A stretch of DNA of 64,000 nt from Candidatus Poribacteria bacterium (lineage in GTDB: Bacteria; Poribacteria; WGA-4E; WGA-3G). The DNA lies in contig JAJEGI010000015.1 in assembly GCA_022819945.1 (NCBI GenBank), forward strand, positions 11,807-75,806, in the 5' to 3' direction. Both the position numbers and the translations under genes were made by a program. Below, in pieces: positions 1-29,616 of this stretch; position 1 is the stretch's first letter, and every line of letters begins with the position of its first letter. The notes below the pieces were generated by a model that was given only the letters and a program-made list of their open reading frames with translations, was not told where the DNA came from and ran no database searches.

Positions 1-587
1 CCCGCAGCTTCTGTCAATTCCTGCATAAAGGCAACAGTCTGGGCAGCACGCGTGCTATCTCCCACTTCAACGCCTGCAGCTTTAGTAGCATATTCTAATA
101 ACTCGTCCATCAGAATAAGCACGGGTTTTCGCTGTTTTGAAAGCAGTTCACAGAGTGCATCACGGCCTGGGGAAGTCCCTCGGTTAAAGCGATCCATTTT
201 GCCCGTCAACTGTTTTTCCAGCATGCCCCAGAGCGTTTCTTTTTCAGCATCTATCGCTGCTCCATCAATTACTACCCGTTGCGCATTCCACTTACTTGCT
301 TTGTGGTACATTGCAATCTGTGCGTGCGTTTTACCACCTCCAAACGGGGTCTGAATTTGGATGACTGGATCCCCTCCAAGTCCCTTTAACCGTCTTTCAA
401 CAACAGAAAGCAATCTCGTGAGGCCCTCAGTTTCATGCGTGTTTTCAAAAAATTGCGTGGGATCCTTATATTCATCAGAAGCGTTACCTTTAAACACTTC
501 ACCCAGTTTCGCAGCAAATATTTCAGGCGTGTGTTTGCCTCCCAATATATCACCGTGGGGAACGGCAACCTCGTAGAAAGGTAGCAT
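1..587 (-). CDS. DUF499-family P-loop ATPase, paralogue a (N-terminal ~195 aa; gene continues beyond window start)
   Basis: Manual reverse-complement translation from ATG at 587..585 gives MLPFYEVAVPHGDILGGKHTPEIFAAKLGEVFKGNASDEYKDPTQFFENTHETEGLTRLLSVVERRLKGLGGDPVIQIQTPFGGGKTHAQIAMYHK... with no stop to position 1. It is ~70-75% identical to the N-terminus of the 858-aa protein at 6565..9141, including the GGGKT P-loop. The ORF track did not list it because it has no in-window stop. Confidence 0.8.
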   Translation of the reverse strand, partial: MLPFYEVAVPHGDILGGKHTPEIFAAKLGEVFKGNASDEYKDPTQFFENTHETEGLTRLLSVVERRLKGLGGDPVIQIQTPFGGGKTHAQIAMYHKASKWNAQRVVIDGAAIDAEKETLWGMLEKQLTGKMDRFNRGTSPGRDALCELLSKQRKPVLILMDELLEYATKAAGVEVGDSTRAAQTVAFMQELTEAA

Positions 588-620
588 TTACTAATCTCCT
601 TGTAGTCTGAATCAAAAATC

Positions 621-3371
621 TCAGAAGAGATCCAATTGCTTTACTGTCTCTTCCTCTTTCTTCTTTTTTTCTAGCTCATCTATATTTTCTTTAACACGTT
701 CCAAACCGTTACCGTGTAAAAAACCTTCTAATAACCTTTTCTCTTTGTGTCCGGGAGGCAACGTTTCGGAAATAGCTTGTGCGACACGATGGAATGCATC
801 ATTCAATTGGTAACCTTCCCTCTCAAAAACGCCAAGGATTTCTTCATGCCGTGGATCCTCTGCCCACAGTAACAACACATAATGCAGAACGTCAATCAAT
901 TCACTTGCACCTTTGAGTTCGTTTGTTGTTCTGTCATGTGGCCCGAGGACGCGGATAAATTGCTTCTCTTTCTGGATAAAACTGCGTCCGCCCCACCCTT
1001 GGGCAAGGTCAATCCCGCAGGACTGTGCTAATTTCCGAGCGTCATCAAAAGGCACACGTTTTGTCCCGTATTCCCATCGCCAGATAACATAAAAGCGCGT
1101 GAGAGAAGTAATTTTCCCCTCTTCAAAACCATTTCGTAAAATCTTTTTCACAGCGTAATTGGTTACCATTTTTTGCACATCGGTGAGAAGACTGTCTGCT
1201 CGTATTATGTTCGCGTGACGATCCATTACCTTCTTGTATTTGCCAAATATCTCAATTGCTGAACCAATACCAGCTATGAAAAAGTCCGTCCCACTCAAAC
1301 CTTCAGTCCAAAGGCTATCAAGTTTTTCCTTGAGATGGGTTTCCATTTCCGTTTTTACGTCACTATAGAAACCTGTTTCTTTGCGCTCCATTTTCCGAGC
1401 GACAATATAGATAGAAGAAGCAAGGACAGCCGATTCTTGGGCACGGAGACGTGAGGTCATTTCTGTATGAAGAGGCCACGCGCCCGTCATTATGAGGCCG
1501 GAATCAAGCAAAGAATTAATCAATGTTTCCCATCCTGCTGTAGATTTATGGGCGTAGACAATGACGGCAATTCCGTTCGGTTTCAATACACGATAGATTT
1601 CTTGAAAAGAGTCTCTTAGTTTTTCTTCAAAGAACCGCTTGCCTTCCGCGAAGCCACCTGGACCATGTGAATAGGCAACGATCTCGTTATTCTTCGGTGT
1701 CAACGGTGTAGAAAAGAGATCGGGATCAACACTCCCAAGCGTTCGCTTCAGCCAAACATAAAAGAAATCTGAGAGATATGAATAGGGAACGTTGTCGTAA
1801 TATGGTGGATCAGTGAAAACAGCATCAAAAAAATTATCGTGATGCGGGAGGTTAGTGGCTGAGGAATGGGTAACATCAGCGGATTTTGAACTGGATTGTG
1901 AACAGTGTTCAATTACCTTAAAAAAATATTTGCAGCCACTCTCAAAACTTCCAGCCGAACCACTAAATGGATTTACTTCGGCATAATCCCAAATCATTGG
2001 CAGAGCCTGCCTTGAGTACAGATGTGCAACTCCTTCTGAACCGTTTAACCAGCGGACAAGCATATTGCTAACTGCCGCTGTCATGTCAAGTGCTAATGCT
2101 AAATAGCTCACAACTGCCTTGGCGTATTCTATATCAGTTTCCTTCACTACTATCTGTTGATATGCTTCCCTTACCTTCTCTACGAACGTAACCAACATCA
2201 ATTTCTGCCTTGCGTTAAAGAGATCGCCCCAGGTGTTCATTCCATAGTTTTGAACGGAAAATGCTCTTTCAGCTCCCCTTCCTTTTCCTTCTGGAGTAGG
2301 TTCATCTGGCACCGCCTCAATACCCCATTCCAACGTTAACTTCTCCTGCTTCTCTGCAAGAAATGTCTTAGCCCGCTCAAAGACAACCTCGTCGTCAACC
2401 GTAGCCACGCGATAACGCTTACCTCGCACACCCGGCTTGTACGTTACAACGGCAACCATCCGCTCACCTGCTTTTCCCTCCTGAAAAAGTTGCTTAGTCT
2501 GCTTTGAAGTTACCGTCCCACCGCAGGTTGGATTAGGACACACCGCGACAGCTTTTGAGACCGTGCCTTTCGTCGGATCAAAACCGTTGGGTATCGGTCC
2601 GTAGTCATCGCCAACAATCTTAAACTCAACATGCTCGTTCTTAACATCCGGATAAAGGGCAATTTTTTTCTCCTTTTTCCTCTGCTCCGTTTTCTCTTTC
2701 TTTACCAGCCAGAATTGTTTCATCAGGGGAATCTCCATACCACATAATGGATTCTGACATGGAATCGTTCGCGCCCAAATCCACCCAACGACACGCGAAC
2801 CATCTGCTTCTTCTTCATAAAAATCTTTTAGTTCCGCCTTCACTTCCTCAAGCACCCACGTGCTCCATTTTTTCACATCTTCCAGCAAGCGATTTCTGAA
2901 ACTCCTCTTAGAGACAGAACCGTACGTCTGTGGGTATTCTAACGTGCATTTCTGGATCAGGACCGAGACAGGGTTGAGATCACTAGAATAAGTTTTACAA
3001 CCAAGCCGAAGTGTCTCTAGTGGAATCGCCCCACCACCTCCAAAAGGATCCAACACTTTCGGGGGTTCACCCTCGTTAGCTGTAAGGATTTCTTCTCGTG
3101 CCCTTTCAATCAAATGCGCGTTCAAAAGATTTTCCCACTTTGAAAGTTTAATGATAAAATCACGCCTTTGATTCCTTTCTAAATAACCCTTCTTCGGTGC
3201 CTGTGTCAGTGCTGCATAAGCAGTAGCGCGTGAAGAGGCAAGCGGCCGCCGAGCCCACCAGACGTGAAGCGTGGAGATATGTCCATGTCGTATGTACTTA
3301 TCACGGATAGATTCCTCGGAAACCTCTTTAACAGGGAACGATTCTTCAATAAGACGTTTATCTTCTTGCAT
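621..3371 (-). CDS. DUF1156-family DNA methyltransferase (N6-adenine/N4-cytosine gamma-class motifs), paralogue a, 916 aa
   Basis: N-terminal 'HISTLHVWWARRPL' signature; SAM-binding motif I-like 'LDPFGGGGAIPLETLRLG'; catalytic motif IV 'FTDPPYYDNVPY'. ~70% aa identity to the 9813..12476 protein. 33-nt gap to the downstream DUF499-a start. Confidence 0.85.
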   Translation of the reverse strand: MQEDKRLIEESFPVKEVSEESIRDKYIRHGHISTLHVWWARRPLASSRATAYAALTQAPKKGYLERNQRRDFIIKLSKWENLLNAHLIERAREEILTANEGEPPKVLDPFGGGGAIPLETLRLGCKTYSSDLNPVSVLIQKCTLEYPQTYGSVSKRSFRNRLLEDVKKWSTWVLEEVKAELKDFYEEEADGSRVVGWIWARTIPCQNPLCGMEIPLMKQFWLVKKEKTEQRKKEKKIALYPDVKNEHVEFKIVGDDYGPIPNGFDPTKGTVSKAVAVCPNPTCGGTVTSKQTKQLFQEGKAGERMVAVVTYKPGVRGKRYRVATVDDEVVFERAKTFLAEKQEKLTLEWGIEAVPDEPTPEGKGRGAERAFSVQNYGMNTWGDLFNARQKLMLVTFVEKVREAYQQIVVKETDIEYAKAVVSYLALALDMTAAVSNMLVRWLNGSEGVAHLYSRQALPMIWDYAEVNPFSGSAGSFESGCKYFFKVIEHCSQSSSKSADVTHSSATNLPHHDNFFDAVFTDPPYYDNVPYSYLSDFFYVWLKRTLGSVDPDLFSTPLTPKNNEIVAYSHGPGGFAEGKRFFEEKLRDSFQEIYRVLKPNGIAVIVYAHKSTAGWETLINSLLDSGLIMTGAWPLHTEMTSRLRAQESAVLASSIYIVARKMERKETGFYSDVKTEMETHLKEKLDSLWTEGLSGTDFFIAGIGSAIEIFGKYKKVMDRHANIIRADSLLTDVQKMVTNYAVKKILRNGFEEGKITSLTRFYVIWRWEYGTKRVPFDDARKLAQSCGIDLAQGWGGRSFIQKEKQFIRVLGPHDRTTNELKGASELIDVLHYVLLLWAEDPRHEEILGVFEREGYQLNDAFHRVAQAISETLPPGHKEKRLLEGFLHGNGLERVKENIDELEKKKKEEETVKQLDLF

Positions 3372-3394
3372 ATTAAATCCTTCTCGCTATATTT

Positions 3395-3676
3395 TCAACA
3401 ACCTACTAACTGAACAAGCAAAAACACACCTATACTCAAAATACAAAAAACGCCCGCAAAAAGTAACCAGATGGGCCCCACTCCCTTCCAATTTACGCGC
3501 GTATTTGCTTTTTTCCCAGCGCGTGGTGAGGAAAGCATGCGCTGTTCATATCTCTGTAGTGCCGCTTTTGCTCTTGAATCTTGTGTCCTTCTAAGCCATT
3601 TTATTGTCTGATGCTTTGCATAACTTTTATCAGACCAGGATTCACTGTCTACCACATAAATAAGAAGTTGAATCAC
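3395..3676 (-). CDS. hypothetical small protein with C-terminal transmembrane helix
   Basis: 93-aa ORF immediately upstream (24-nt gap) of MTase-a; hydrophobic C-terminus 'GPIWLLFAGVFCILSIGVFLLVQLVGC'; no recognisable family. Confidence 0.3.
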   Translation of the reverse strand: MIQLLIYVVDSESWSDKSYAKHQTIKWLRRTQDSRAKAALQRYEQRMLSSPRAGKKANTRVNWKGVGPIWLLFAGVFCILSIGVFLLVQLVGC

Positions 3677-3779
3677 TGCCTCAAATGAGCCCTGATATTT
3701 GTCAACGGAATTAGTCGTTTTGGACTTGCAAAAAGTTGTTAAAAAAGTGCCGTGAACCCTTATATTTAGTGGGTTTTTC

Positions 3780-4870
3780 GCTTGATTAATTAACGCAATT
3801 TATGGTAAAATATCAGTAGTAAAATAGGGGATTGTCAGTCCCCTATCCGAACCAAAAGCGAGTTGCTTTTTTCAGGTTCTACAACTGCTTGGTATTTTAC
3901 CAGAAACCGTCAGAAAAAAGCAACTCCTAATTTCATAGGAGTATCTGATGGACTTGATCAAGATCATGGAGATGTTCCCGGATCAAGAGGCGTGTATTGC
4001 TTATTTAGAGCGTCTACGATGGCAAGGATCACCAGAATGTCCGCATTGTGAGTCCACACACGTCAAACAACGCAACGAAAGCGATACAGGGCGAATTGGA
4101 CGCTATAACTGTCATGGGTGTCGCTCAACGTTCAAAGTAACGTCCGGCACGATCTTTCACGGCACAAAGATACCGCTTCAGAAGTGGTTTGTTGCGATCG
4201 GACTCATGGCAAACGCAAAGAAAAGTCTCTCAAGTTGCCAACTCGCTCGTGACTTAGGACTCAAGCAGAAAGCGGTTTGGCGGATGATGATGGCAATCCG
4301 TGCCGAGATGAGCAAGGATAACGTGCTACTACAGGGAATTGTAGAGGCAGATGAGACGTACATCGGGGGGAAACGCAAGAAAGACTACGATAAGGAAGCG
4401 GGTGAGCCTCGTAAGCGTGGACGTGGAACGGTGAAAGATGCCGTGATCGGGGCTATTGAGCGCGGTGGAAAGGTCGTCGCGAAGTTGATCCCCGACATCA
4501 CCGGTAAGACGATCCTTGAGTTTATCAAGCGGTTCGTCAAGACCGAAGACTCCGAACTCTATACTGACCAGTATCGTGGATACAACGAAGTCGGTAAAGA
4601 GATGGCACATGAGACCATGAATCGGAGTGAGAAATGGGAAGCCGATGGGATACATACCAACACAATGGAAGGCTTTTGGTCATTTGTAAAGCGTGCATGG
4701 TATGGATCGCATCATCACTATTCAACAGGATACACGCCCCTGTATCTCGCAGAGGCGTGCTATAAGTATAACTACAGAGAAACTAACATGTTTGATAAGT
4801 TTCTCAGGGAGCTGTGGGAATGAGTAAAGAAGAATTAATTGACCAAAAACTTAAGGAAATACTGTATCAA
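3780..4870 (+). mobile_element. IS1595-family insertion sequence (boundaries approximate; terminal inverted repeats not resolved)
   Basis: Contains a single IS1595-type transposase gene between the two DUF1156/DUF499 modules. Only a weak 'caattaatt'-type match between the flanks; exact ends need comparison with an empty site. Confidence 0.4.
3948..4823 (+). CDS. IS1595-family (ISXO2-like) DDE transposase, 291 aa
   Basis: N-terminal Zn-ribbon 'CPHCES...RYNCHGCRSTF' followed by a DDE_Tnp_IS1595-like core ('ADETYIGGKRK', 'YTDQYRGY', 'HTNTMEGFWSFVKR'). Confidence 0.85.
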   Translation: MDLIKIMEMFPDQEACIAYLERLRWQGSPECPHCESTHVKQRNESDTGRIGRYNCHGCRSTFKVTSGTIFHGTKIPLQKWFVAIGLMANAKKSLSSCQLARDLGLKQKAVWRMMMAIRAEMSKDNVLLQGIVEADETYIGGKRKKDYDKEAGEPRKRGRGTVKDAVIGAIERGGKVVAKLIPDITGKTILEFIKRFVKTEDSELYTDQYRGYNEVGKEMAHETMNRSEKWEADGIHTNTMEGFWSFVKRAWYGSHHHYSTGYTPLYLAEACYKYNYRETNMFDKFLRELWE

Positions 4871-4916
4871 ATCTTCCGTCTGTTTGTTGATTTCATCGAC
4901 GATGAACGCAAATACG

Positions 4917-5147
4917 CTAAAAAAACACAGCCTTGAGAGATTTCATCAAATCGTTTACGTCTTTTATCGTTTTCGTGTATCTGACAATCTCGTGAAGGGG
5001 TAAACGATGTTTTGACACGTCCTCACGGAATGTATCAAGGGTATTTTTCAGCGTTTCAATTTCTTCTTCAAAAGATTCGATCACTTGTTTTCGATCTGTG
5101 TTCATCTGTTCGTCCTTATAGGTTGGAGGGGACCGAAGTCCCCTCAC
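4917..5147 (-). CDS. hypothetical protein (76 aa, doubtful)
   Basis: ORF only; N-terminus is encoded by a GC hairpin (GAGGGGAccgaagTCCCCTC at 5119..5140) that may instead be a structural element. Confidence 0.2.
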   Translation of the reverse strand: MRGLRSPPTYKDEQMNTDRKQVIESFEEEIETLKNTLDTFREDVSKHRLPLHEIVRYTKTIKDVNDLMKSLKAVFF

Positions 5148-5154
5148 AGTTGGG

Positions 5155-5577
5155 TTATTGGGTATAGAATAGCTCAGGATAGAAGTTTAACACTATCCAA
5201 ACAGAAACGGCTGTCCCACCGAGACATCCGGCAGATGTATGGATAAGTCGTTTAATCCTAACCTCTTTCTTGTATGTGTCTGTGTAAGCATCAACATAGG
5301 CAGGTGTTTTGCCGATCAAACGATTTACTGGCGGTGTTGGTGGAATAACTTGAGCCGTTATTGCAATAACACCGCCAATAAGACAACCAAGTGCTGCGGA
5401 TGCACAGAAAGTTCCGGCTAACCAGCCGTAAGGTTCTTGTACGTCGCGTTTGGCATCAGCAATTGCTTGTGCAACATCATTTGTCTGCTGAGCAAGCACA
5501 ACACAAGGCATGCCGAAAATCAGCACTGCCATAACAAGTGCAAACAGTCTAAAAGTCATCACGAATCCTCTGGTCAA
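5155..5577 (-). CDS. hypothetical membrane protein (signal/TM helix plus two further hydrophobic segments)
   Basis: 140 aa; 'FRLFALVMAVLIFGMPCVVLA' N-terminal hydrophobic segment, internal 'GCLIGGVIAITAQVI' and C-terminal 'GGTAVSVWIVLNFY'. Confidence 0.4.
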   Translation of the reverse strand: MTRGFVMTFRLFALVMAVLIFGMPCVVLAQQTNDVAQAIADAKRDVQEPYGWLAGTFCASAALGCLIGGVIAITAQVIPPTPPVNRLIGKTPAYVDAYTDTYKKEVRIKRLIHTSAGCLGGTAVSVWIVLNFYPELFYTQ

Positions 5578-5779
5578 AAGACCAAAGTTCTGATATTAGA
5601 ATGAGTTATTGAGTTTACATCACTTTGACACACAACATCACTTTCCGATGTCACTCGGTTTGATGGTAGAGACCGCCCCAAGCGGAGCGGGTGACATTCT
5701 CTACCAAGTGATGTTCTGAATATTATACAATTTTTTGTATTTTTTGTCAATTTTTAAAATTTCTACAAGTCATAAACGA

Positions 5780-6442
5780 CTAATTCCGATTAAATTTGTT
5801 GTTTCCACCAATCCTTGGAGGTTTATGGAATTCAGCGAACGGTCCAATTCCGGCTTTTGTTGCGACTGCCTCGCCATTAATGTAGAGGAAAGCCTCATCC
5901 TCAAAATTCCAAGTCACCGCTACGTGCATCCACACATCTTTTTTAACGAAATCAGGTGCTGGAACAGACATCAGAGCATCTATATCAAGCGCACTTTCTA
6001 TCAAGAAAACGAACTCGTTCTCACGTTCTCCTGCCCGGGTGCCTTTGCCAATAGAGAAGGAGAGGGCAGCCGTACTCGCATCAAATAACCGATAGGTGCC
6101 TTCACCTGCACCGTCCCAATACGGCTTAAACCAGAACCCAATCGTGCCAGGGTTCTGCATCAGGTAATCGAATTCAATGAACTGCTCCTTGTTATCACCG
6201 AGTTCGATCCCCATTCCATATACACCCTCTTTACTCGGCACGCGCTTTGCTCCGCCCATAATCACGCCATCATTTCCGTTACCACTGGCATCTACAGCAA
6301 CATTCGCGTCTTTTCCTTTGAAGGAGAACCAGACTTCGGGTTCTAAGGTATGTCCGGTATGGGAAAACATTATCAAGCCGATCAAGAGTATCAAACTTAG
6401 CGTTAACGGACTGTCAATAGATTGGATTGTTCGGTTAAACAC
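5780..6442 (-). CDS. secreted LamG/concanavalin-A-like lectin-fold protein
   Basis: 220 aa, N-terminal signal-like hydrophobic stretch; sequence resembles LamG-type jelly-roll domains ('IGFWFKPYWDG', 'WMHVAVTWNFEDEAFLYINGE'). Confidence 0.45.
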   Translation of the reverse strand: MFNRTIQSIDSPLTLSLILLIGLIMFSHTGHTLEPEVWFSFKGKDANVAVDASGNGNDGVIMGGAKRVPSKEGVYGMGIELGDNKEQFIEFDYLMQNPGTIGFWFKPYWDGAGEGTYRLFDASTAALSFSIGKGTRAGERENEFVFLIESALDIDALMSVPAPDFVKKDVWMHVAVTWNFEDEAFLYINGEAVATKAGIGPFAEFHKPPRIGGNNKFNRN

Positions 6443-6564
6443 AGCGTCCTCCTTTTTAATGGAGATATACCTACTATTAAAATTGATTGAACACTCTAAT
6501 AGATAAAAAACTTGTCAAGTATGAGCACTGTTTGATTCTGGATGGCGCGGAAATTCAGTTATCT

Positions 6565-9141: not shown

Positions 9142-9482
9142 TCGCTTCTCTCCTTAAGGATTTGTTGAATTTGCGTTTTCAGCGGCGGAAGCTTGGCCTG
9201 TAACGCATCCCAAACCACATCCATGTTAATATTAAAGTATACATGGATCACTCTATTTCTGAACCCCGCAATATTATGCCATGGAACGCTTGGATACTTC
9301 TCTCGGATGGAATCGGGTATCTTCTTGACAGCTTCACCAATAATTCCAAGGTTTCGGATAACAGCGTCAACCCGCATCTGATCCGCCTCAAACGCACTGC
9401 GAGTCATACCTTCAACGTATGATGCGATACGGTCAGCTGCCTCCACTATGTCTTGGAGGTATAGGTTATAGTTCCGTGACAT
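9138..9482 (-). CDS. hepT: HepT-like (DUF86/HEPN) RNase toxin
   Basis: 114 aa; HEPN Rx4-6H motif region 'FRNRVIHVY'; follows the nucleotidyltransferase gene with a 17-nt overlap, the typical MntA-HepT arrangement. Confidence 0.75.
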   Translation of the reverse strand: MSRNYNLYLQDIVEAADRIASYVEGMTRSAFEADQMRVDAVIRNLGIIGEAVKKIPDSIREKYPSVPWHNIAGFRNRVIHVYFNINMDVVWDALQAKLPPLKTQIQQILKERSE

Positions 9483-9810
9483 ACTCTACCTCTTTTTCAA
9501 TATAAGGTTTGTAACCCGGTTTGATGGATGTGGGGGTCACAAGGTCAATGTCCTTCTTAAACAGATCTTCCAGAAAAACAGCCAACCCCATGTAATCGTC
9601 AAAAGTCAATCTTTCGAGTTCAACGAGAAAATCAATGTCGCTTGCGGCAGTTGCCGTCCCTCGCACGTAAGATCCGAACAAGCCGATCCGTTTAACCCCG
9701 TATTTCCGCAGGGTTTTTCGATTGTCCACAAGGGTCTGCTTGATAAACGCCTTGCTAAGAATTTTTTGATCTTCCAAACTTAAATCCTCCACTAAGGCAC
9801 TTTCTAACAC
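9466..9810 (-). CDS. mntA: MntA-like minimal nucleotidyltransferase antitoxin
   Basis: 114 aa; 'GLFGSYVRGTATAASDIDFLVEL' = GS...DxD polymerase-beta-type nucleotidyltransferase motif. Confidence 0.75.
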   Translation of the reverse strand: MLESALVEDLSLEDQKILSKAFIKQTLVDNRKTLRKYGVKRIGLFGSYVRGTATAASDIDFLVELERLTFDDYMGLAVFLEDLFKKDIDLVTPTSIKPGYKPYIEKEVEYVTEL

Positions 9811-9812
9811 GT

Positions 9813-12476
9813 CTAAAAGAGTTGTCCTTGTCGTATGTCCTCTCTGACCTTTTCACGTCCGGCAAGGAAACCGTCCAGTAGTTTTTTCTCTCTATTTTCA
9901 ATCGGTAGTGTTTCAGAAATGGCTTGCGCGACCCGATAGAACGCCTCGCTGTCTCCATAGCTGCTGTCCCTAAGCACGCGAAGCATTTCATCACGTTGTC
10001 CCTTTTCCCACAGTAATAGGGCCTTGTGCAGGATGTCTATTAACTCTTTAGTATTAGAAAGATCATCAAGCACTCGCGTTTGCGGTCCGAGGACTCGAAT
10101 AAATTGCTTCTCTTTCTTGATAAAACTGCTCCCACCCCACTCTTGTGCAAGGTCAACCCCACAGGATTGTGCTAACTTTCGCGCTTCATCAAACGGGACG
10201 CGCGCTTCGCGATATTCCCATCTCCAGAGGACATAGAAGCGAGTAAGATCGGAAATTTCACCGGCGAACCCGTTGTGCAAAATTTGTCTCACGGCGTAAT
10301 CGGTGGCGATCTCCCGCACATCGTCAAGCAGGCGATCGGCGCGAATTACCTCTCCTTCAAAATCAATAACCTTCTCGTATTTACCGAAAACCTCAATAGC
10401 AGAACCAATAGCGGCAATAAAGAAATCCGCGCCGCTTAGACCTTCCTCCCAAAGACGGTGGAGCTTAGCGTTGAGATGCGTTGTTATTTCTTCTTTAACT
10501 TCATTGTAGAAACCTGTCGGTTGACGTTCCATTTTCCGGGCAACAATATAGATGGAGGAAGCAAGAGCTGCGGATTCATTAGCCGTAAGTCGTGTAACCA
10601 TTTCGGTACGTAGAGGCCAAGCACCTGTCATAATGAGACCAGAATCCAGCAAAGAGTTAATCAAAGTTTCCCATCCTTCTGTGGACTTGTGGGCATAGAC
10701 AATAATAGTCACGCCGTTAGGATTTAACACACGATAGATTTCCTGAAAGGATTGCTTGAGATTTTCCTCAAAGAAGCCCTTGTCTTTGTGTGCATATCTC
10801 CTCGAATCCCACCCCGCCATTTCTGTAATTTCCTGATTTTTCGGAGCAAGAGGGGTCGAAAAAAGTTCTGGGTACAAATCACCAACTGTTCTTTTAAGCC
10901 AAACATAGAAAAAATCGGATAAATCCGCGTATGGAACGCTATTGTAATATGGTGGATCGGTAAAGACCGCATCAAAGAATTCATCAGGATACGCAATATC
11001 AGTAGCAGAAAAGTGAGAGATCACGGCATTTTGTGGGAAAAGCGTTGAACTTAACTGTGAAATAATTTCGGTAGCAATTTCAACTTGACTTAACCAATTT
11101 CCTGTTAAAGTGCCATACGGGTTTTGCTCTGAATAATCAAAAACCATTGGGAGTGCTTGCCTCCCAAAAACATTGAAACTTCTTTCTCCTAAAGGTTCCC
11201 ACCAACAGGAAGTCGAATTATAACTTGAATGCCGGCTTAATATTAGAGCCAAGTAACTCACCACTGCCTTCGCATACTCTACATCAACGTCTTCTGCTAC
11301 TAATTTTTGATATACCGCTTTCACTTTCTCCACAAATGTAATCAACGCTAACTTTTGTCTTGCATTAAAGAGATCTCCCCAAGTATTTATTCCGTAAATA
11401 GCAACATTAAATACTCCACTCATTAAAGGGAGCTCTTCATCAGGTACCGGATTCATACCCCACTCCAACGTCAACTGTTCCTGTTTTTCTGCAAGGCACG
11501 CTTTTGCAGACTTAAAAACAACAAAATCAGCCTCCGTTGCCACGCGATAGTGCTTATCCCTCGTCCCCGGCTTTTGCATGACAACAGCAACCATTCGTTG
11601 TCCTGCTTTCCCTTGTTGAAATAGTTTTCGTGTTGTTTTCGCCTCTATCGGTCTACCACAGATAGGACAAACTGCCACAGCACGTGAGATGCTGCCTATC
11701 TTCGGGTCAAAATCATTAGGTATCCGTTCGTACCCGTCACCAACAATCTTGAACTTGATATTCTTGTCTTGAGGATAAGGGTAAAGTGCAACCTTCTTTC
11801 GTGTCTTGTTTGCCAGCCAGAATTGTTTCATCAGCGGAATTTCTGCCCCACATGAAGGGTTTTGGCACGGAATTGTTCTTGCCCAAATATAACCTACTGG
11901 AATTGAACCATCTTTCTCCTCACGATAAAATTTGCCTAATTCTTTCTTCGCTTCTACAAGGACCCAGTTTCCCCATTTTTTAACATCTTCCGATAAAGTT
12001 ATTTCCGTTGTTGCGCTAAGTGAACTACCGTACTTTTGCGGGTATTCCAATGTACATTTCTGAATTAGAACAGCTACAGGATTGAGATCGTTGGAATAAG
12101 TTTCGCACCCAAGCCGAAGTGTCTCCAGAGGAATTGCACCGCCTCCACCAAAAGGATCCAGAACCTTCGGTGGGATACCGTCGTTCGCTTCAAGGATCTC
12201 CCTCTGTGCTTTTTTAAGCAGATGGGGATTTAGAGAATTTTCCCATTTTGAAAGGTTTATAATAAACTCTCGTTTCCGACTCCATTCATCAGTATCTTGT
12301 GAAGGTGGTACAAGGGCAGCATAGGCGGTTGCACGTGATGCAGCAAGCGGACGTCGCGCCCACCAGATATGGAGCGTAGAGATATGTCCACGCCGTATGT
12401 TTTTCTCATGGACGGATTCAGCGGAAACTTCTTTGACAGGAAAGGTTTCTTCAATGAGGCGTTTGTCTTCGTTCAT
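9813..12476 (-). CDS. DUF1156-family DNA methyltransferase, paralogue b (888 aa from the Met aligned with paralogue a; the ORF-track start at 12578 is probably an upstream in-frame extension)
   Basis: 'MNEDKRLIEETFPV' aligns with the paralogue-a N-terminus; 'HIWWARRPL', 'LDPFGGGGAIPLETLRLG', 'FTDPPYYNSVPY' motifs. 3-nt gap to the mntA start. Confidence 0.85.
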   Translation of the reverse strand: MNEDKRLIEETFPVKEVSAESVHEKNIRRGHISTLHIWWARRPLAASRATAYAALVPPSQDTDEWSRKREFIINLSKWENSLNPHLLKKAQREILEANDGIPPKVLDPFGGGGAIPLETLRLGCETYSNDLNPVAVLIQKCTLEYPQKYGSSLSATTEITLSEDVKKWGNWVLVEAKKELGKFYREEKDGSIPVGYIWARTIPCQNPSCGAEIPLMKQFWLANKTRKKVALYPYPQDKNIKFKIVGDGYERIPNDFDPKIGSISRAVAVCPICGRPIEAKTTRKLFQQGKAGQRMVAVVMQKPGTRDKHYRVATEADFVVFKSAKACLAEKQEQLTLEWGMNPVPDEELPLMSGVFNVAIYGINTWGDLFNARQKLALITFVEKVKAVYQKLVAEDVDVEYAKAVVSYLALILSRHSSYNSTSCWWEPLGERSFNVFGRQALPMVFDYSEQNPYGTLTGNWLSQVEIATEIISQLSSTLFPQNAVISHFSATDIAYPDEFFDAVFTDPPYYNSVPYADLSDFFYVWLKRTVGDLYPELFSTPLAPKNQEITEMAGWDSRRYAHKDKGFFEENLKQSFQEIYRVLNPNGVTIIVYAHKSTEGWETLINSLLDSGLIMTGAWPLRTEMVTRLTANESAALASSIYIVARKMERQPTGFYNEVKEEITTHLNAKLHRLWEEGLSGADFFIAAIGSAIEVFGKYEKVIDFEGEVIRADRLLDDVREIATDYAVRQILHNGFAGEISDLTRFYVLWRWEYREARVPFDEARKLAQSCGVDLAQEWGGSSFIKKEKQFIRVLGPQTRVLDDLSNTKELIDILHKALLLWEKGQRDEMLRVLRDSSYGDSEAFYRVAQAISETLPIENREKKLLDGFLAGREKVREDIRQGQLF

Positions 12477-12706
12477 GCAGTATCCTTTTTGTGAAGGTTT
12501 GGTCGTTTTTTCGACTCCCCTATTCAAAACTATAGGTTTGTGACGTGGCAATACAACTGAGGATTTATAGCATATCAAAGATGTATGAAGATTTCAATGC
12601 AATTGTCGGAGAACGCATATAATGTTGCATCCTTGACGTGCGATAAATCGCACTACTACGAACCGATAAGCGCGTTATTCCAAGACTGTTTTTATCAAGG
12701 CCTGGT

Positions 12707-14716
12707 TTATGTTTCACCAAAAGCCTCGCGAATTTTTTGGAAAAGTCTGATGGTCTTCTCCTTCGTCTCACCGGGTAGCTCGCTGGCATCTTGCATATTG
12801 CTAAGTTTGTTTCGCAATCGCTTTGCTATCGATCCCTTATTTGCCGTTATATCCTTTTCTTCCAGAAAACTCTCAATTCTTTTCCAAAGCACACCCTCAC
12901 CTTGCAACGTAAAGTCATCTACGCCAGCATGCGCAAGTTCTCTACTATAAGTTTCCTTAATAATTGCTTTCATAAAGTCTTCAGTAAAAATATCTTCAAG
13001 TTCAAAATCACCACTGGCACCTATAGCATCGCCTAGCAAAATGGCTTCAGTGTGAGATTCTGTATACTGCGTAAGCCACTTCTTAACCAATTTATCTTTA
13101 GCGCGTCGCCCCTCATCGTCAGAATCAAACAAAGCAACTACGTTAAGACGCTGACCAATCATAAGAGTAGCAACATGAACGGCTTCAGAAGCACTTGTTC
13201 CTGGTGTGATGCGGACATCTTCTGGCAGGCCTTCCTCTTCAATTCGTTTTAACCAATTTGACAATCCTGCTAGAATATAGTAGTCATGAACGCCCTCCAC
13301 AACAAGATTGCGATCAGCGATCAGAAGACTCTGTGAGGCATCCATCCCTAACGCTGCTTGAAGCACAAACTTTGCTTCTGGTGGGCTTTCGACAAGGTCT
13401 GTTGTTACAACGATGCCGTTATCTGTTTCCTTTAGCACTCGAATTCGGTCTGGATGATTCAAATCAATCATGAAGGGAAGATGTGTTGTATAGAGAAGTA
13501 TATTTCCCTTAGCATAGTATTCAAGCCGATCAAGTAAGTCTTTCTGTGCTTCTGGATGAAGGTGGAGTCCGGGTTCATCCAAAAGAACAACACAACCTTC
13601 AAACGTCCCTTCACTTTCGTGCATGAACATGAGGTCAAATGAGAAAAACCATTGAAATCCTTTGGATCTCTCCTCCAATTCAATGAGGGCTTCATCAAGA
13701 TCATCCTTTAGAAAAGTAAAGAAATCCTGATTATCAACATCATATTCAACTTCATAATTGCGTTGACGAAATCGATCTGAGATTAAGTTTGTTAGAGTGC
13801 TCCCACCGTCAGCAAGATCAAATTGTCGTTGCTTACGGGTTTCTGCATCGCCCTGTCCAAGCTGAATCAAGTTATTTAGATCAAGCCCTGATAAGTTAAG
13901 GATTGTGAGAAAGGTCTTGTCTTCTTCCGTCAAACGATTGTTATTTTGACGAGATTGAATCTCATCAAGTTGTGCAGCCCCGCTAAATGCTTTATAATCG
14001 TCCATGTAGATAAATGTGGGCAAATGATCAGTAATATATTCATGAATTTTTGATTGAATAGAGGGTAATGGTTCAAGCGTATGAACAAGCTGTGCAAGAC
14101 CTGCAATGTACGCGCTGATAAAGTTGTTCTCAATTTGCTGTGGGGGTTCCGATGGCGATAGGACCTCTTGCAACAACATTTGGTGCTTTTGAGCTAATCC
14201 TCTTAAATCGGTGAATCGACCTTCATGTGCAAAACGTCTCACTTCTTTGAGGCATTCATCAGCACGTTGTTTGAATGGAACCCCAAAATCACTTTGAACC
14301 TGTGGTAGAACACTACAAGCATTATTAACATCGTTAGGATCTGGTTTATCCGAGAAAATCTCATCCTCAAAGTCTATAACTAATTGCCCTGCATAATTCC
14401 GGGACACTTCTATGGTATCAGGGAATATCGCATTCTCAGCAATCTGGGTGAGTTCGGATTTTTCTTGATCTGAAAGTCGAAACTTTGCCCGGCAAACCTC
14501 TTGCTCTTCGCTTTGTTCTTGCCGTCGGCCGCGTGGCCATTCCTTCCTCATAACATAAGGCTCGGGGGTGTAAGGATTAAGCTTATGAAGTGCTTTCAGA
14601 AGGGAGGTTTTTCCCGATTCATTTTTGCCAACGAGTACCGTTAGTGGATTCACTTCGACCCATCCAGAGTCAAGGATCCCTTTGTACATAGTAACACGAA
14701 AAGAAATCAAGTCCAT
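12707..14716 (-). CDS. OLD-family ATP-dependent endonuclease (ABC ATPase + Toprim), 669 aa
   Basis: Walker A 'LVGKNESGKTSLLKAL'; 'VVLLDEPGLHLHPEAQ' ABC signature/Walker B typical of AAA_21/OLD; C-terminal Toprim 'LVVEGVHDYYIL' and 'LFDSDDEGR'. Confidence 0.8.
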   Translation of the reverse strand: MDLISFRVTMYKGILDSGWVEVNPLTVLVGKNESGKTSLLKALHKLNPYTPEPYVMRKEWPRGRRQEQSEEQEVCRAKFRLSDQEKSELTQIAENAIFPDTIEVSRNYAGQLVIDFEDEIFSDKPDPNDVNNACSVLPQVQSDFGVPFKQRADECLKEVRRFAHEGRFTDLRGLAQKHQMLLQEVLSPSEPPQQIENNFISAYIAGLAQLVHTLEPLPSIQSKIHEYITDHLPTFIYMDDYKAFSGAAQLDEIQSRQNNNRLTEEDKTFLTILNLSGLDLNNLIQLGQGDAETRKQRQFDLADGGSTLTNLISDRFRQRNYEVEYDVDNQDFFTFLKDDLDEALIELEERSKGFQWFFSFDLMFMHESEGTFEGCVVLLDEPGLHLHPEAQKDLLDRLEYYAKGNILLYTTHLPFMIDLNHPDRIRVLKETDNGIVVTTDLVESPPEAKFVLQAALGMDASQSLLIADRNLVVEGVHDYYILAGLSNWLKRIEEEGLPEDVRITPGTSASEAVHVATLMIGQRLNVVALFDSDDEGRRAKDKLVKKWLTQYTESHTEAILLGDAIGASGDFELEDIFTEDFMKAIIKETYSRELAHAGVDDFTLQGEGVLWKRIESFLEEKDITANKGSIAKRLRNKLSNMQDASELPGETKEKTIRLFQKIREAFGET

Positions 14717-14774
14717 AGTAAAGTACGAAACCTCTTAAATTGATTGGTATTGTCTTGACACATCCTATATGATG

Positions 14775-17700
14775 TCACAGTATATTGCTTTCCCCAGAAT
14801 ACTTTACACTTTTTTCCCGAATTTCATTCAAAGAAATCTGATACCGAACTGCTTCAATCTTTTCCTCCGGTTGTGTATGTTCAGCTGGATTCTGAATGAT
14901 ATGGAGTTCAGGCTTCTGGGTTGCAGCATTGAGAACAACATAGAGGAAATAGTCAGATTGAAACTGCTGTGCTTTGAACCACTCGTTTTGTGTCAGAACC
15001 ACCGAACCATATCCAGCCCGGGCTTTGACTTCAATATAGCGTTTGACACCTGTCGAGTCGGTTGAACGGACATCAAAACCGAGATTTTCAGCAGCGACAT
15101 CTTCAGGAACACGCCCGTGTTCACACTCGTAACGCATTGTTACTTCCATACCAATCTGCTCAATTTGCGGGTCGCTTTTCATTGCTGTGTCGGTAACTGA
15201 ACTCGGAATTACTCGAATTGCAGAAACAAAATTGGGCGTACTCATTGTGAGAAGACGTTCTTGAGCGATAGTTTCCTCCAATTTTTTTAAAGCATCCTCA
15301 TAACCCTGTTTCTGTTCCTCTTTGTTACGTATAATCCGATCAACCTTATCGCCTGCATCTCGGCGGGTATAGAGATGAATTAGATCGCTATCCAGCTCAA
15401 GGCAGAGATGCTCAAGCGAAGTGCGTCCGTATTTCTCTTTAATTTCTGTCTGCCGTTTGCGTTCAACCTCAAGTTCAGCTTTGTAACCTTCAAGTCCAGG
15501 CATCAATTTTGCCATGACAAGTCCTTTCAAGGTTTCAATATCTTCTGATAGGACTTGCTGTGTGCTTTCTGCTATATCCCAAATTATCTTCGGATCTATG
15601 GGTTCAACTGTTACTGTATCAGGTTGCACGTAGAAGGCAAACAGACGCACGCCAGCAATCTGACCTAAACCGTCGCGGATCTCACCCTCATAGAACAGAA
15701 TCACACCATCCATTTTCCCATCCGGGTCTTCAAAGACTGCTCCCTGTTTTAGACAATCAGAAAGTTCGCTTCCAACCCATTGGAGAACAGCTTCAAATAG
15801 CGGGTGACCAAAAGAGATGAATTCCGCATCGGGGTTTTTAAAGGCAAGTTCTTTATCGAAAGTGGCTTTCGGATAGGTTTTCAATATAGAACCGTGTTTC
15901 CGTTTAAATTCCACCACTTCAGCAATTCGTCGGATCTGGATCGGGATCCTTTCAATCGTAAGAAACTTATCTCTACGGTCATGCAATCTACCTTTGAGCT
16001 CAGCAAAGGCTTTTCGGAAAAAGGCTTCGGTATATTCTGGGATGAGTCGCTGTTCGCGGGCGCGCTCTGCCATTTCGCGAATGCGGGTGTAATCAATATA
16101 ATGGGTTGCGAGGCTTTCCGCCAAGTTCTCTTTGACCTGCGTAATGTATGCCTCATCTACCTCAATGTCAATTTCTGCAAGAATTTCATCAATTCCTTTT
16201 GCAGAAGCTGCTGCTTGCAATAAAAGTTGAGAGAGATTCACACCATAGAGTACTTCGTTCAGGACATCAAAAACCTTATCGCTACCTAAAGCGGTTTGGA
16301 TCTCTCTAATCTTCTTGAAAAGGGCAGTCAATACCATCCCTTCTCGTGTATCTTCGGCCACAAGGTTTACCACGAAGCACTCTTTAGTTTGTCCATACCG
16401 ATGGATACGTCCCATCCGTTGCTCCAAGCGATTAGGGTTCCAAGGCAAGTCATAATTAATCATAAGGTGACAGAACTGAAGGTTAATTCCCTCGCCAGCG
16501 GCTTCGGTAGCGATTAAAATCCGCGTTCGATTTTTGAATTCGTTTTCAGCTGCAATCCGTTCCTCAAGTTTCATGCCCCCGTGAATAACCGTAACGGTAT
16601 AACCCCAGGCCTCCATTTTATCCTGAAGGTATGACAACGTATCCCGAGATTCCGTGAAAATGAGAATTTTTTCACCAGAGAAATCGGCCTCAAGATCGTC
16701 AAGCGTTTTTCTCAACTCCCGCACCTTAATTTCGGCTTCGCTTGTAATAATCTCCTGTGCTGCTTCTGAGAGTGCTTCAAGGGTTTCGATTTCACGTCTG
16801 AGTTCTTCCCGATTCTCTGCCACGGAAAGTGTTTCCCAAATTTCTTCCTCTTTCCATCTGTCCTCTTCACTCAAATCATCAATTGTTTCAAAATCAATCG
16901 TGCCAATAGAAGCCTTCCTTTCTACTACACCCTCTAACAATTCCTGAAGACGAGCTTTTCGACGCATAAGTGAGTTGCGTAACGCATAAGTGCTGGATGC
17001 CAACCGCCTCTGTAAAATTACAAGTGCGAACGCTACATTATTCTTTTTATCTTTTGTCAAGGCCTTATTGTACTGGGTATTGACATAATCAGAGAGTTCG
17101 TTGTAGAGCTCTTTCTCTTTTGGTGAGTCAACGCCGAGATCAAATGAGAGTGTATCAACGTGTCGAGGGAGAAACAACGGTTTGCCTTCAAAATCTTTCA
17201 AATCTTCCTTGACACGTCGAAGGAAAAGCGGATTATCTCTTGCTGTAATAGATTCACTCAGCATCTGGCTTGTTGCAAAAAAACCTGGCTCAAGAAGATC
17301 TAAGAATAATCTGAAATTCTCGGGATCGCCTTTGTGTGGTGTGGCAGTAAGAAACAAGAGATGGGTTGAAATTCTGGAGAGCGTTTCTCCCAATTCATAC
17401 CGACTGGTTTTTTTCAACTTATTTCCGTACTGGTAAGCTGCCATTTTGTGTGCTTCGTCCACAATGACCAGATCCCACTGAGACGATTCAATCAAGGCTT
17501 TAATATCATCTCGTTTGGCAAAATCAACGGACGTAATTAAATGTGATTCACGTGTCCAAACGTTTTCACCCGGTTGCGCTAAGAGAACTGCCCGATCCAT
17601 TATAAGAAAACTTTCCTCAAACCGCTCTTTCAGTTCCCTCCGCCACTGGTCCTTAAGATGTCCTGGGACGACAATCAGTACGCGGCTAATGAGATGCCTA

Positions 17701-18125
17701 AGTTTGAGCTCCTTAATGATAAGTCCCGCCATAATCGTTTTCCCCGCACCCGGATCATCAGCAATAAGAAAACGGATTCGCGGTAATTTGAGAACATGTC
17801 CGTAGACGGCATCTACTTGATGTGGCAAGGGATCTACCTTAGAAGCGTTTACAGCAAAAAGTGAATCGTAGCGTGCAGCATATCGGTATCGCAGTGCTTC
17901 AAGACTGAGAAAAACGTGGCGTGCCTCTGCCGTAAAATTCGGCGTGAGTTTTAGCGATTCTAATGCATTTACTTCGTCTTTATGGAGAAGTTGGTCGATA
18001 TGTGTTCGCGAATTGATGGTAGACCCGATTAGTTGGACATATTCGCCAATTTCTTTGAGAAGATCAATTTTTACAAGCTCGGGCCATCGGTCAGACTTTA
18101 TAGTGTCCCCACTTTTTATATTCAT
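14775..18125 (-). CDS. SNF2-family DEAH helicase with C-terminal DUF3883 (NO VEIN-C/REase-like) domain, 1116 aa
   Basis: Motif I 'DDPGAGKT', motif II 'VIVDEAHK', helicase-C motifs ('ATEAAGEGINLQ', 'YDLPWNP', 'QRMGRIHRYGQ'); last ~110 aa ('YIEVKARAGYGSVVLTQNEW...YFLYVV') resemble DUF3883. Confidence 0.85.
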   Translation of the reverse strand: MNIKSGDTIKSDRWPELVKIDLLKEIGEYVQLIGSTINSRTHIDQLLHKDEVNALESLKLTPNFTAEARHVFLSLEALRYRYAARYDSLFAVNASKVDPLPHQVDAVYGHVLKLPRIRFLIADDPGAGKTIMAGLIIKELKLRHLISRVLIVVPGHLKDQWRRELKERFEESFLIMDRAVLLAQPGENVWTRESHLITSVDFAKRDDIKALIESSQWDLVIVDEAHKMAAYQYGNKLKKTSRYELGETLSRISTHLLFLTATPHKGDPENFRLFLDLLEPGFFATSQMLSESITARDNPLFLRRVKEDLKDFEGKPLFLPRHVDTLSFDLGVDSPKEKELYNELSDYVNTQYNKALTKDKKNNVAFALVILQRRLASSTYALRNSLMRRKARLQELLEGVVERKASIGTIDFETIDDLSEEDRWKEEEIWETLSVAENREELRREIETLEALSEAAQEIITSEAEIKVRELRKTLDDLEADFSGEKILIFTESRDTLSYLQDKMEAWGYTVTVIHGGMKLEERIAAENEFKNRTRILIATEAAGEGINLQFCHLMINYDLPWNPNRLEQRMGRIHRYGQTKECFVVNLVAEDTREGMVLTALFKKIREIQTALGSDKVFDVLNEVLYGVNLSQLLLQAAASAKGIDEILAEIDIEVDEAYITQVKENLAESLATHYIDYTRIREMAERAREQRLIPEYTEAFFRKAFAELKGRLHDRRDKFLTIERIPIQIRRIAEVVEFKRKHGSILKTYPKATFDKELAFKNPDAEFISFGHPLFEAVLQWVGSELSDCLKQGAVFEDPDGKMDGVILFYEGEIRDGLGQIAGVRLFAFYVQPDTVTVEPIDPKIIWDIAESTQQVLSEDIETLKGLVMAKLMPGLEGYKAELEVERKRQTEIKEKYGRTSLEHLCLELDSDLIHLYTRRDAGDKVDRIIRNKEEQKQGYEDALKKLEETIAQERLLTMSTPNFVSAIRVIPSSVTDTAMKSDPQIEQIGMEVTMRYECEHGRVPEDVAAENLGFDVRSTDSTGVKRYIEVKARAGYGSVVLTQNEWFKAQQFQSDYFLYVVLNAATQKPELHIIQNPAEHTQPEEKIEAVRYQISLNEIREKSVKYSGESNIL

Positions 18126-18262
18126 ACGTATTTGTTCCTTACATAACTTCCTTAGTCCAGTTTTGATTCAGATACCTTTAACATTGTAAATTACCTTGAA
18201 ATTTAAAGCAATTCTTTATACTATATCTTGCAAGGAAACGATACCTCTATTCCGCATGAGGC

Positions 18263-29112: not shown

Positions 29113-29616
29113 TTATTGATTTAGCATCAAACGAATATCGTTTTCACAGATGAACTCAACTGTGACACCATTTTGACGGAGTGCTTCGCGATAGGTCCAC
29201 CATGCACTATCTACCGCTTGCAGAATGGGAGGTTTTTCGGCGTGTGCAAGTGCCACAGCGATGAATTTTCTGTCATCCGGATCAAAATCTGCTAACGCTG
29301 GGTCTGTTGGGAACTCTTGAAAATCAGTTTCTGAATCATCAATAGGCATAATGGAAACCAAGTCGCATTGTTGCGGGTTTGCCCAATTTATCTCTACCCA
29401 CTTAAGGAATGCATCCCCTACACCCGGAAAACCGTCTGAATGCAACTTATTCCGGTATTCTCCGATAATTCGCCGCTGGTCATCTAACACTAATTTTACG
29501 TTACCTGCGGTAATCTGCATCAGTCTGTCAATACAAGTCTCTACGCAATCTTCAGAGGCTTGGTCTGCTTTTCCATTGGCAACTAACGGGACATTTGTAT
29601 CTACAATAACTTTCAT
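29113..29616 (-). CDS. PIN-like nuclease domain protein
   Basis: 167 aa; 'MKVIVDTNV' first acidic residue, further conserved acidic positions, 'DRKFIAVALA' near the C-terminus; 4-nt overlap with the upstream ATPase gene. Confidence 0.45.
   Translation of the reverse strand: MKVIVDTNVPLVANGKADQASEDCVETCIDRLMQITAGNVKLVLDDQRRIIGEYRNKLHSDGFPGVGDAFLKWVEINWANPQQCDLVSIMPIDDSETDFQEFPTDPALADFDPDDRKFIAVALAHAEKPPILQAVDSAWWTYREALRQNGVTVEFICENDIRLMLNQ

Follow-up and report, generated by a model that had tools for sequence, protein, structure and literature searches.

Six consecutive open reading frames (ORFs) on the minus strand of a 64,000-nucleotide (nt) stretch of Candidatus Poribacteria DNA, the whole of which is referred to here as the window, encode a helicase, an OLD nuclease, a DNA methyltransferase, a MntA/HepT toxin-antitoxin pair and a DUF499 ATPase. 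The question raised by this locus is whether it represents a type of defence system that has not been described, as a reading made without database searches had proposed, or a known system that carries additional genes. The evidence points to the second answer. The locus is very probably an Hma (helicase, methylase, ATPase) system, also termed a Type-1 BREX-related (BR) system, in which two modular defence cassettes, OLD and MntA/HepT, are embedded, and which likely resides on a Poribacteria chromosome. As such it is one more instance of an arrangement already on record and does not define a new class of immunity.

Organisation of the six-gene locus

The six genes extend across window positions 6565-18125 in the order hmaA-OLD-hmaB-mntA-hepT-hmaC, and comprise the following features.

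14775..18125, minus strand: hmaA, 1116 amino acids; Snf2-family helicase with a C-terminal NOV_C/DUF3883 PD-(D/E)xK nuclease
12707..14716, minus strand: OLD, 669 amino acids; ABC ATPase-Toprim
12477..12706, minus strand: OLD-hmaB intergenic spacer, 230 nt
9813..12476, minus strand: hmaB1, DUF1156 N6-adenine DNA methyltransferase
9466..9810, minus strand: mntA, minimal nucleotidyltransferase antitoxin
9138..9482, minus strand: hepT, HEPN RNase toxin
6565..9141, minus strand: hmaC1, DUF499 STAND/ORC-like AAA+ ATPase, related to BrxC

When the ORFs were re-read, all six lay at the coordinates and on the strand given by the earlier, sequence-only reading, and the co-directional, tightly packed arrangement that it described was confirmed. 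Intergenic distances are 58 nt between hmaA and OLD, 230 nt between OLD and hmaB and 2 nt between hmaB and mntA, while mntA overlaps hepT by 17 nt and hepT overlaps hmaC by 4 nt (ATGA). The longest ORF of hmaB1 spans 9813-12578, and the ATG at 12476, which had already been taken as the start, is the likeliest real one. Pfam and PADLOC profile searches, which had been recommended with the original domain assignments, upheld those assignments for all six proteins. As judged from sequence, all catalytic motifs of the six-gene locus are intact.

A 7-bp hairpin (GTGCGAT..ATCGCAC) lies in the OLD-hmaB spacer, as does a promoter-like site (TTGAAA-17-TATGCT, 12597-12569), which may be an internal promoter for hmaB-mntA-hepT-hmaC. 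Scans of positions 1-18600 returned 34 promoter-like sites, compared with 28.8±5.4 in a shuffled background, and 20 terminator-like sites, compared with 16.9±3.1 expected; with no excess of either, the scans say nothing on operon structure. An Rfam scan of the whole window returned no RNA family.

The core genes correspond to the Hma system

HmaA matched the PADLOC HmaA model over its full length (2.9e-206). Its Pfam domains are Helicase_C (1e-27), SNF2-rel_dom (3e-14), ResIII and, at residues 988-1077, NOV_C (formerly DUF3883; 5e-22). Across 60 homologues, conservation was at least 95% both for the helicase motifs GAGKT (127-131), DEAH (223-226) and QRMGRIHRYGQ and for the nuclease residues D1018, E1032-V-K1034 and E1048. 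By analogy with its published homologue, HmaA is predicted to be the main effector of restriction in the Hma / Type-1 BR system.

HmaB1 has an N-terminal DUF1156 domain (Pfam, 3e-21) and matched the PADLOC HmaB model over its full length (3.3e-126). The motifs DPFGGGG (107-113) and DPPY (507-510) are kept both in HmaB1 and in HmaB2, a second methyltransferase of the window that is described below. These motifs had been labelled gamma-class; motif I and motif IV of HmaB1 are separated by a large insert of ~390 amino acids, an alpha-like order that makes the label doubtful. The insert is taken to be a putative target-recognition region. HmaC1 matched DUF499 in Pfam (4.5e-35) and the PADLOC HmaC model over its full length (1.2e-118), and its Walker A (FGGGKTH, 82-88) and Walker B (DE, 159-160) motifs are conserved in 51 homologues. 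HmaC1 is predicted to be the scanning or recognition component.

Hma was defined by Payne et al. (2021; PMC8565338), with 1,638 instances in 26 phyla, often accompanied by Septu. In E. coli, the HmaA of Halomonas meridiana is by itself enough to protect against T4, and its NOV_C domain is a Mn2+-dependent nickase that is required for defence (Liu et al. 2024; PMC11232893); inserts occur in 66.5% of hma loci according to the same study. The triad was renamed 'Type-1 DUF499-centred BREX-related systems' in a 2026 NAR article that covers 2,446 taxa, traces the triad neighbourhood back to Anantharaman 2013 and proposes a role for each protein: the methyltransferase in marking self, the DUF499 ATPase in scanning and the helicase-nuclease in restriction (PMC12839542). 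Given the full-length HmaA, HmaB and HmaC matches and this published work, which includes antiphage activity of HmaA, the triad cannot be called uncharacterised, as it had been: it is Hma.

The window locus has the same three proteins as Hma / Type-1 BR systems, in the same order and with the same two insertion hot-spots. As in the definition of the system, its genes occupy one strand in A-B-C order with few embedded genes. No structural difference was seen in the core, and the locus-specific extras are a helicase-less hmaB2-hmaC2 pair and an IS1595 element.

Weaker PADLOC matches of HmaA were to DrmD (4.7e-154), BrxHI (2.5e-115) and BrxHII (6.4e-111). The BrxC, PglXI and BrxHII proteins of Type 3 BREX and class 1 DISARM resemble the DUF499 ATPase, N6-methyltransferase and Snf2 helicase of the window locus, but the effector here is a fused PD-(D/E)xK domain. 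Among the locus ORFs scanned with Pfam and PADLOC there was no PglZ, BrxA/B/F, DrmA/B or PLD nuclease. Membership of BREX (types 1-6) was rejected because no PglZ match was found among those ORFs, and membership of DISARM because the sole resemblance is that of HmaA to DrmD, below its HmaA score, and DrmB and DrmC genes are lacking.

Two defence cassettes are embedded among the hma genes

The OLD protein matched AAA_15/AAA_21 in Pfam; no Pfam match to Toprim was found in it. Its best PADLOC models, at only ~1e-16, were Old (1e-16) and GajA (3e-15, residues 369-665), with AriA also matched. A phmmer search of PDB sequences matched the OLD protein of Thermus scotoductus (6P74, 2.9e-7) across the Toprim 'VVEG' strand. 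An AlphaFold model built on 36 homologues had a mean pLDDT of 86.5, and Foldseek comparison of this model with the PDB returned 6P74 as the best match over the full length (E 1.9e-12), followed by PtuA and GajA. Invariant in the 36 homologues are the Walker A motif GKNESGKT (30-37), the Walker B motif LLDEPGLHLHP (378-388, which includes D380/E381) and the Toprim residues E474, D531-S-D533 and E574/D575. The match to the Old model, the shared fold with 6P74 and the invariant E/DxD residues thus support the earlier assignment to the OLD-family ATPase/Toprim proteins, and on the modelled structure the protein is a fused ABC ATPase-Toprim nuclease of this family in which both defining domains are found. 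An identity of ~14% to the solved OLD structures, together with the generic PADLOC matches, indicates a divergent OLD-family lineage.

Like HEC-04 and the class 1 OLD nucleases (P2 Old, BpOLD), this OLD protein is one polypeptide with an ABC ATPase N-terminus, a Toprim C-terminus and a conserved E/DxD metal site, and it has no partner helicase; like HEC-04, it is embedded among hma genes. The HEC-04 model was absent among the 25 PADLOC matches listed, of 106. The nearest precedents for the function of OLD are P2 Old, GajA and AriAB. P2 Old is described as a Toprim tRNase that its ABC sensor opens upon single-stranded DNA hairpins or aberrant DNA (bioRxiv 10.64898/2026.07.10.737580). A GajA-like ATPase-Toprim architecture is shared with Gabija, the GajA match lying over the Toprim region. 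Membership of Gabija was rejected, as no UvrD-like GajB lies beside OLD, whose neighbours are hmaA (Snf2) and hmaB; no UvrD/GajB gene was found next to the stand-alone OLD homologues described below either. PARIS was likewise rejected, since its AriA ATPase and AriB Toprim are separate proteins and the two domains are here fused in one of 669 amino acids.

The second cassette is a MntA/HepT pair. MntA matched NTP_transf_2 (8.7e-16) and Polbeta (1.6e-11) in Pfam and the PADLOC candidate PDC-S09 (3.7e-31), and its motif GSYVRGTATAASDID is present; HepT matched HepT-like in Pfam (1.4e-30) and has the motif RNRVIH(VY) at 75-82. In common with type VII MntA/HepT modules, the pair has GSX10DXD in the MNT protein, Rx4H(xY) in the HEPN protein, the antitoxin gene first and overlapping genes. 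In characterised homologues, MntA AMPylates HepT and HepT cleaves RNA. The pair in the window differs from type VII modules in that it lies inside an apparent defence operon, translationally coupled to hmaB and hmaC; its role in defence is putative.

Embedding of this kind is documented. Embedded genes occur in 931 of 1,485 Hma systems (62.7%), with 96.7% of embedded genes oriented like the host system and ABC ATPases as the most frequent embedded family; embedded HEC-04 (fused ATPase-TOPRIM) and HEC-08 (HEPN) each defend alone (Payne et al. 2024; bioRxiv 10.1101/2024.01.29.577857). TOPRIM/OLD and HEPN(-MNT) modules inside BREX/BR loci have been catalogued as 'backup effectors', and HEPN-DUF499 fusions have been reported (PMC12839542). 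With Hma known (PMC8565338), embedding published and backup effectors catalogued, the view that the locus is of a type not seen described no longer holds.

Comparison with related Hma loci

A total of 185,579 species genomes were scanned with an HmaB alignment, which yielded 80 HmaB-related loci, and the window proteins were then mapped onto these loci; the related loci and contigs used in the comparison are numbered L001-L094. The closest HmaB matches, at 83-84% identity, were from Candidatus Poribacteria metagenome-assembled genomes. Among the relatives are several long-read assemblies. The A-B-C order is the same in ~60 related loci, and in ~25 loci hmaABC is bare, with overlapping genes. 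The hmaA/hmaB junction is occupied in 44 of 71 loci (62%) and the hmaB/hmaC junction in 32 of 58 (55%). By Pfam, the 67 insert ORFs at hmaA/hmaB include 15 AAA_15/AAA_21 ATPases, 6 MNT, 5 PIN, 3 HepT-like, 2 HEPN, 3 XisH, 3 XisI, 3 Fic and 2 Schlafen proteins; the 49 at hmaB/hmaC include 13 MNT, 7 HepT-like, 3 HEPN and 3 AAA_21 proteins. As AAA_15/AAA_21 and MNT/HEPN proteins are the commonest at the respective junctions, the window has the modal insert type at each.

These figures bear on whether the six genes could be independent defence genes that came to lie together by chance in a defence island, with no shared regulation and, proximity apart, no functional relation. Such an origin would agree with the autonomy of the modules elsewhere and with the promoter-like site in the 230-nt spacer before hmaB. 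It is extremely unlikely, however, given that the inserts are placed between core genes that belong to one system, share their strand and are set off by 2-nt gaps or overlaps, that the same two junctions are filled in 62% and 55% of related loci, and that embedding is in the same orientation in 96.7% of published cases (bioRxiv 10.1101/2024.01.29.577857). Furthermore, the flanking genes (PhyH, GNAT, FG-GAP, EF-G and rpoB) are housekeeping or accessory genes and do not form a defence island.

The embedded modules vary between close relatives. L006, whose HmaA is 88% identical to that of the window, has kept mntA-hepT and lacks OLD, with 347 bp in place of window positions 14795-12512. Neither OLD nor MntA/HepT is present in L074 (HmaA 84% identical) or L020, and inserts of other kinds are found in L008, L010, L011 and L014. 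The position of the MNT/HEPN pair also varies: besides the hmaB/hmaC junction, it is found upstream of hmaA in L011 (and in L016, where only an MNT homologue was detected) and between hmaA and hmaB in L015, L019 and L067 (MNT alone in L044). OLD has 3253 recorded homologues, and homologues with 64-70% identity stand outside any Hma locus in four contexts.

L084/85: stand-alone OLD homologue adjoining a resolvase fragment
L086-88: stand-alone OLD homologue adjoining a Type ISP enzyme
L093: stand-alone OLD homologue, 70% identity, among unrelated genes
L094: stand-alone OLD homologue adjoining an RRXRR protein

In L092 hepT was called as a 42-amino acid ORF, yet homology runs on in frame, and L011, L014 and L071 each have a solo MNT gene beside hmaC with HepT not detectable. 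Loss of the toxin with the antitoxin kept is perhaps recurrent at the hmaB/hmaC junction in these four loci.

Nucleotide identity between the window and L004, its closest relative, is mosaic: 94% for hmaA, 95% for mntA, 92% for hepT and 91% for hmaC, compared with 78% for OLD and 85% for the OLD-hmaB spacer. The OLD stretch at 13200-14400 falls to 69-82%, against ~95% in its flanks; the hmaB insert region at 10800-11700, the most divergent part of hmaB, falls to 73-78%, against 96% in its flanks; and the C-terminal end of hmaC falls to 82-84%. This pattern would fit an exchange of cassettes or alleles, or else diversifying selection that acts on the sensing and specificity parts. In L083, a copy of the last ~31 hmaA codons (8840-8932) lies just upstream of OLD, after an inserted XisI gene, a hint that recombination with the hmaA 3' end as its anchor may be the route by which cassettes are exchanged.

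The DUF499 ATPase in L046, L057 and L065 has an N-terminal Schlafen/AlbA_2 domain (~1e-20). Fusion of HEPN to HmaC was sought and rejected for this clade, in which the N-terminal fusions are of Schlafen/AlbA_2 instead. Together, the MNT/HEPN pairs and these fusions indicate that the hmaB/hmaC junction draws several RNase-type modules.

The sequence-only suggestion can be developed into a reading in which the six genes form one integrated, multi-effector, methylation-discriminated machine of a type distinct from Hma, with OLD and HepT as obligate effectors under HmaC. Consistent with this are the co-directional genes, the start/stop overlaps from hmaB to hmaC, the same six-gene order in L003, L004, L005, L083 and L092, the recurrence of RNase-type modules (MNT/HEPN pairs or Schlafen/AlbA_2 fusions) at the hmaC 5' end and the HEPN-DUF499 fusions in the literature (PMC12839542). 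An obligate machine is nevertheless quite unlikely. L006 is missing OLD as a clean indel, and L074 and L020 have neither insert; OLD homologues stand outside Hma; hepT is truncated or lost in L092, L011, L014 and L071 with hma intact; and the MNT/HEPN position varies. In addition, HmaA alone suffices for defence in the published case (PMC11232893), and the arrangement already falls within published descriptions of embedding. What stands of the suggestion is the presence of OLD and toxin-antitoxin modules in a defence locus. The neighbourhood survey of 80 loci that had been called for gave evidence in both directions: OLD and MntA/HepT are separable and variable, yet the six-gene order has been kept in at least seven loci.

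That last result is among several that weigh against regarding the locus as an Hma system with exchangeable cassettes. The loci with the full order are the window, L003, L004, L005, L083 (with an extra XisI gene), L092 and, in part, L071, all from Poribacteria genomes or related metagenome contigs, and L004, L005 and L092 share a chromosomal site, with PhyH/GNAT/FG-GAP genes on one side and a LamG-like gene on the other. The recurrent order and the syntenic site indicate that the composite has been inherited as a unit for some time within the lineage, and, taken with the translational coupling of hmaB-mntA-hepT-hmaC, make some wiring between core and inserts possible. The operon is a putative one, the promoter and terminator scans being at background. 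In the only published test of its kind, T4 grown on HmaB-expressing cells gained no protection (PMC11232893).

A second hmaB-hmaC pair and an IS1595-family element

Downstream of hmaC1, four further features were found.

5780..6442, minus strand: Laminin_G_3 (concanavalin-like) gene, Laminin_G_3 2.6e-9
3706..5788, no strand given: IS1595-family element, DDE_Tnp_IS1595 1.1e-36 and Zn ribbon
621..3371, minus strand: hmaB2, second full-length DUF1156 methyltransferase gene
1..587, minus strand: hmaC2, 5' part, second DUF499 ATPase gene, cut by the window edge

The sequence-only reading had correctly named the modules in positions 1-18125 that it listed, and had overlooked a second DUF1156 methyltransferase, the start of a second DUF499 gene and an IS1595-family element.

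HmaB2 contains DUF1156 (1.1e-19), matched the PADLOC HmaB model (3.2e-128) and is 62-64% identical to HmaB1 in amino acid sequence. The hmaC2 gene begins 33 nt past the hmaB2 stop, and the first 193 amino acids of HmaC2 are 69% identical to residues 1-193 of HmaC1 (tblastn). On metagenome scaffold L001, where the pair continues (3172-5736), hmaC2 is full length (854 amino acids, DUF499) and is followed by genes for EF-G, peptidase S58, DUF4416 and rpoB, which indicates that the region is chromosomal. The EF-G/rpoB flank was not found in L003-L006 within the downstream stretch covered. The pair is on the same strand as the complete Hma operon and downstream of it, has no helicase gene of its own, and no hmaA fragment was found between the two hma modules by tblastn (1e-3). 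It may represent either a further specificity module, sharing hmaA, or what is left of a second system, and the nearest homologue of HmaB2 in the databases, found on a 3.8 kb contig, reaches only 74% identity.

Between the two hma modules lie the LamG-like gene, the IS1595-family element and a 93-amino acid ORF upstream of hmaB2. The product of the Laminin_G_3 gene had no PADLOC match. A LamG-like gene also follows hmaC in L005 and L092, and from this gene order the Laminin_G_3 gene is regarded as a conserved downstream neighbour that lies outside the system. The insertion sequence (IS) is 2,083 bp long and is bounded by inverted repeats of 32 nt (3706-3737 and 5757-5788, 84% complementary); it contains a transposase at 3948-4823 on the plus strand and two minus-strand passenger ORFs, 4917-5147 (76 amino acids) and 5155-5577 (140 amino acids). 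Metagenome contigs L001 and L002 end inside the element, and a blastn comparison of the IS region with plasmids gave no match. One passenger ORF has predicted transmembrane segments. A perfect sigma-70 consensus (TTGACA-17-TATAAT, 5750-5722, minus strand) lies inside the right end of the IS and faces the passenger ORFs.

An IS1595 element between two hma modules and a hmaB2-hmaC2 pair without a helicase might be expected of a graveyard of inactivated Hma systems, and relatives with hepT truncation, or with a possible hmaC frameshift (L071), would be in keeping with such decay. All eight hma, OLD and toxin-antitoxin reading frames are, however, full length with conserved catalytic motifs, hmaC2, cut by the window edge, being intact on L001; and no hma gene is interrupted by the IS, which sits in the spacer separating the LamG-like gene from the 93-amino acid ORF. 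A decaying locus is therefore very unlikely.

The helicase-less tandem hmaB2-hmaC2 is the only feature of the locus for which no published precedent was found. The two pairs, each of them intact, are 62-69% identical in amino acid sequence, and a helicase is lacking from the second; on these grounds one HmaA may serve two specificity modules (hmaB1-hmaC1 and hmaB2-hmaC2), an organisation that would be analogous to multi-specificity Type I restriction-modification loci. The embedded OLD and MntA/HepT may, going by the gene arrangement, also be functionally linked to the core, for instance if they fire once Hma is inhibited. This combined scheme is unlikely.

Solitary DUF1156 methyltransferases and other genes of the window

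Solitary full-length DUF1156 methyltransferases, with no hmaA or hmaC nearby, were seen in the Poribacteria loci L007, L009, L012, L089, L090 and L091. They occupy syntenic housekeeping positions (for example in the order NFACT-HSDR_N-DUF1156-GroEL, following an ECF sigma factor, or close to SAM synthetase and AdoHcy hydrolase), and four copies lie on one 3.98 Mb contig. This distribution suggests that they may be orphan epigenetic methyltransferases derived from Hma.

Elsewhere in the window, ~11 kb from the Hma locus, positions 29613-30884 (minus strand) encode an AAA_15/AAA_21 ATPase of 423 amino acids with a C-terminal DUF3696, possibly another ABC-ATPase defence gene. Positions 55237-58413 (plus strand) encode a UvrD-like helicase that is interrupted at residues 661-818 by an RNase_T exonuclease domain (2.4e-25); the genes around it encode WD40, cadherin/LDL-repeat and cohesin/dockerin proteins, a set that is expected in Poribacteria.

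Proposed mode of action

In the proposed mechanism of the embedded-cassette Hma system, whose core follows the published Hma / Type-1 BR model, HmaB would mark self DNA through adenine methylation, with its large variable insert determining the motif; a role of methylation in marking self is plausible. HmaC, as a DUF499 STAND/ORC-like ATPase, would scan or recognise DNA and license the effector. HmaA would translocate by means of its Snf2 motor and nick or cut through its C-terminal PD-(D/E)xK domain, an activity shown for the Halomonas homologue. At the hmaA/hmaB hot-spot, OLD would act as an autonomous module, a single protein that joins an ABC-ATPase sensor to a Toprim nuclease. As P2 Old, Gabija and PARIS suggest, aberrant DNA or anti-restriction proteins may trigger it to cleave tRNA or DNA. 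At the hmaB/hmaC hot-spot, the HEPN RNase HepT would be kept inactive by MNT-mediated AMPylation. Both cassettes are probably co-transcribed with hma and may provide a second, abortive layer of defence in a backup role, as exchangeable modules and not as obligate subunits.

Implications

What the locus contributes is an Hma system from uncultured bacteria of Candidatus Poribacteria that is well preserved, apparently intact and equipped with two of the commonest embedded cassettes. The gain and loss of cassettes at the hmaA/hmaB and hmaB/hmaC junctions is visible in it at nucleotide resolution, through the OLD indel of L006, the duplicated hmaA 3' end of L083 and the patchwork of divergence that affects OLD and the methyltransferase insert. 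It is a candidate for addressing three questions: methylation-based discrimination by HmaB and HmaC, synergy between Hma and its inserts, and the function of a helicase-less hmaBC pair.

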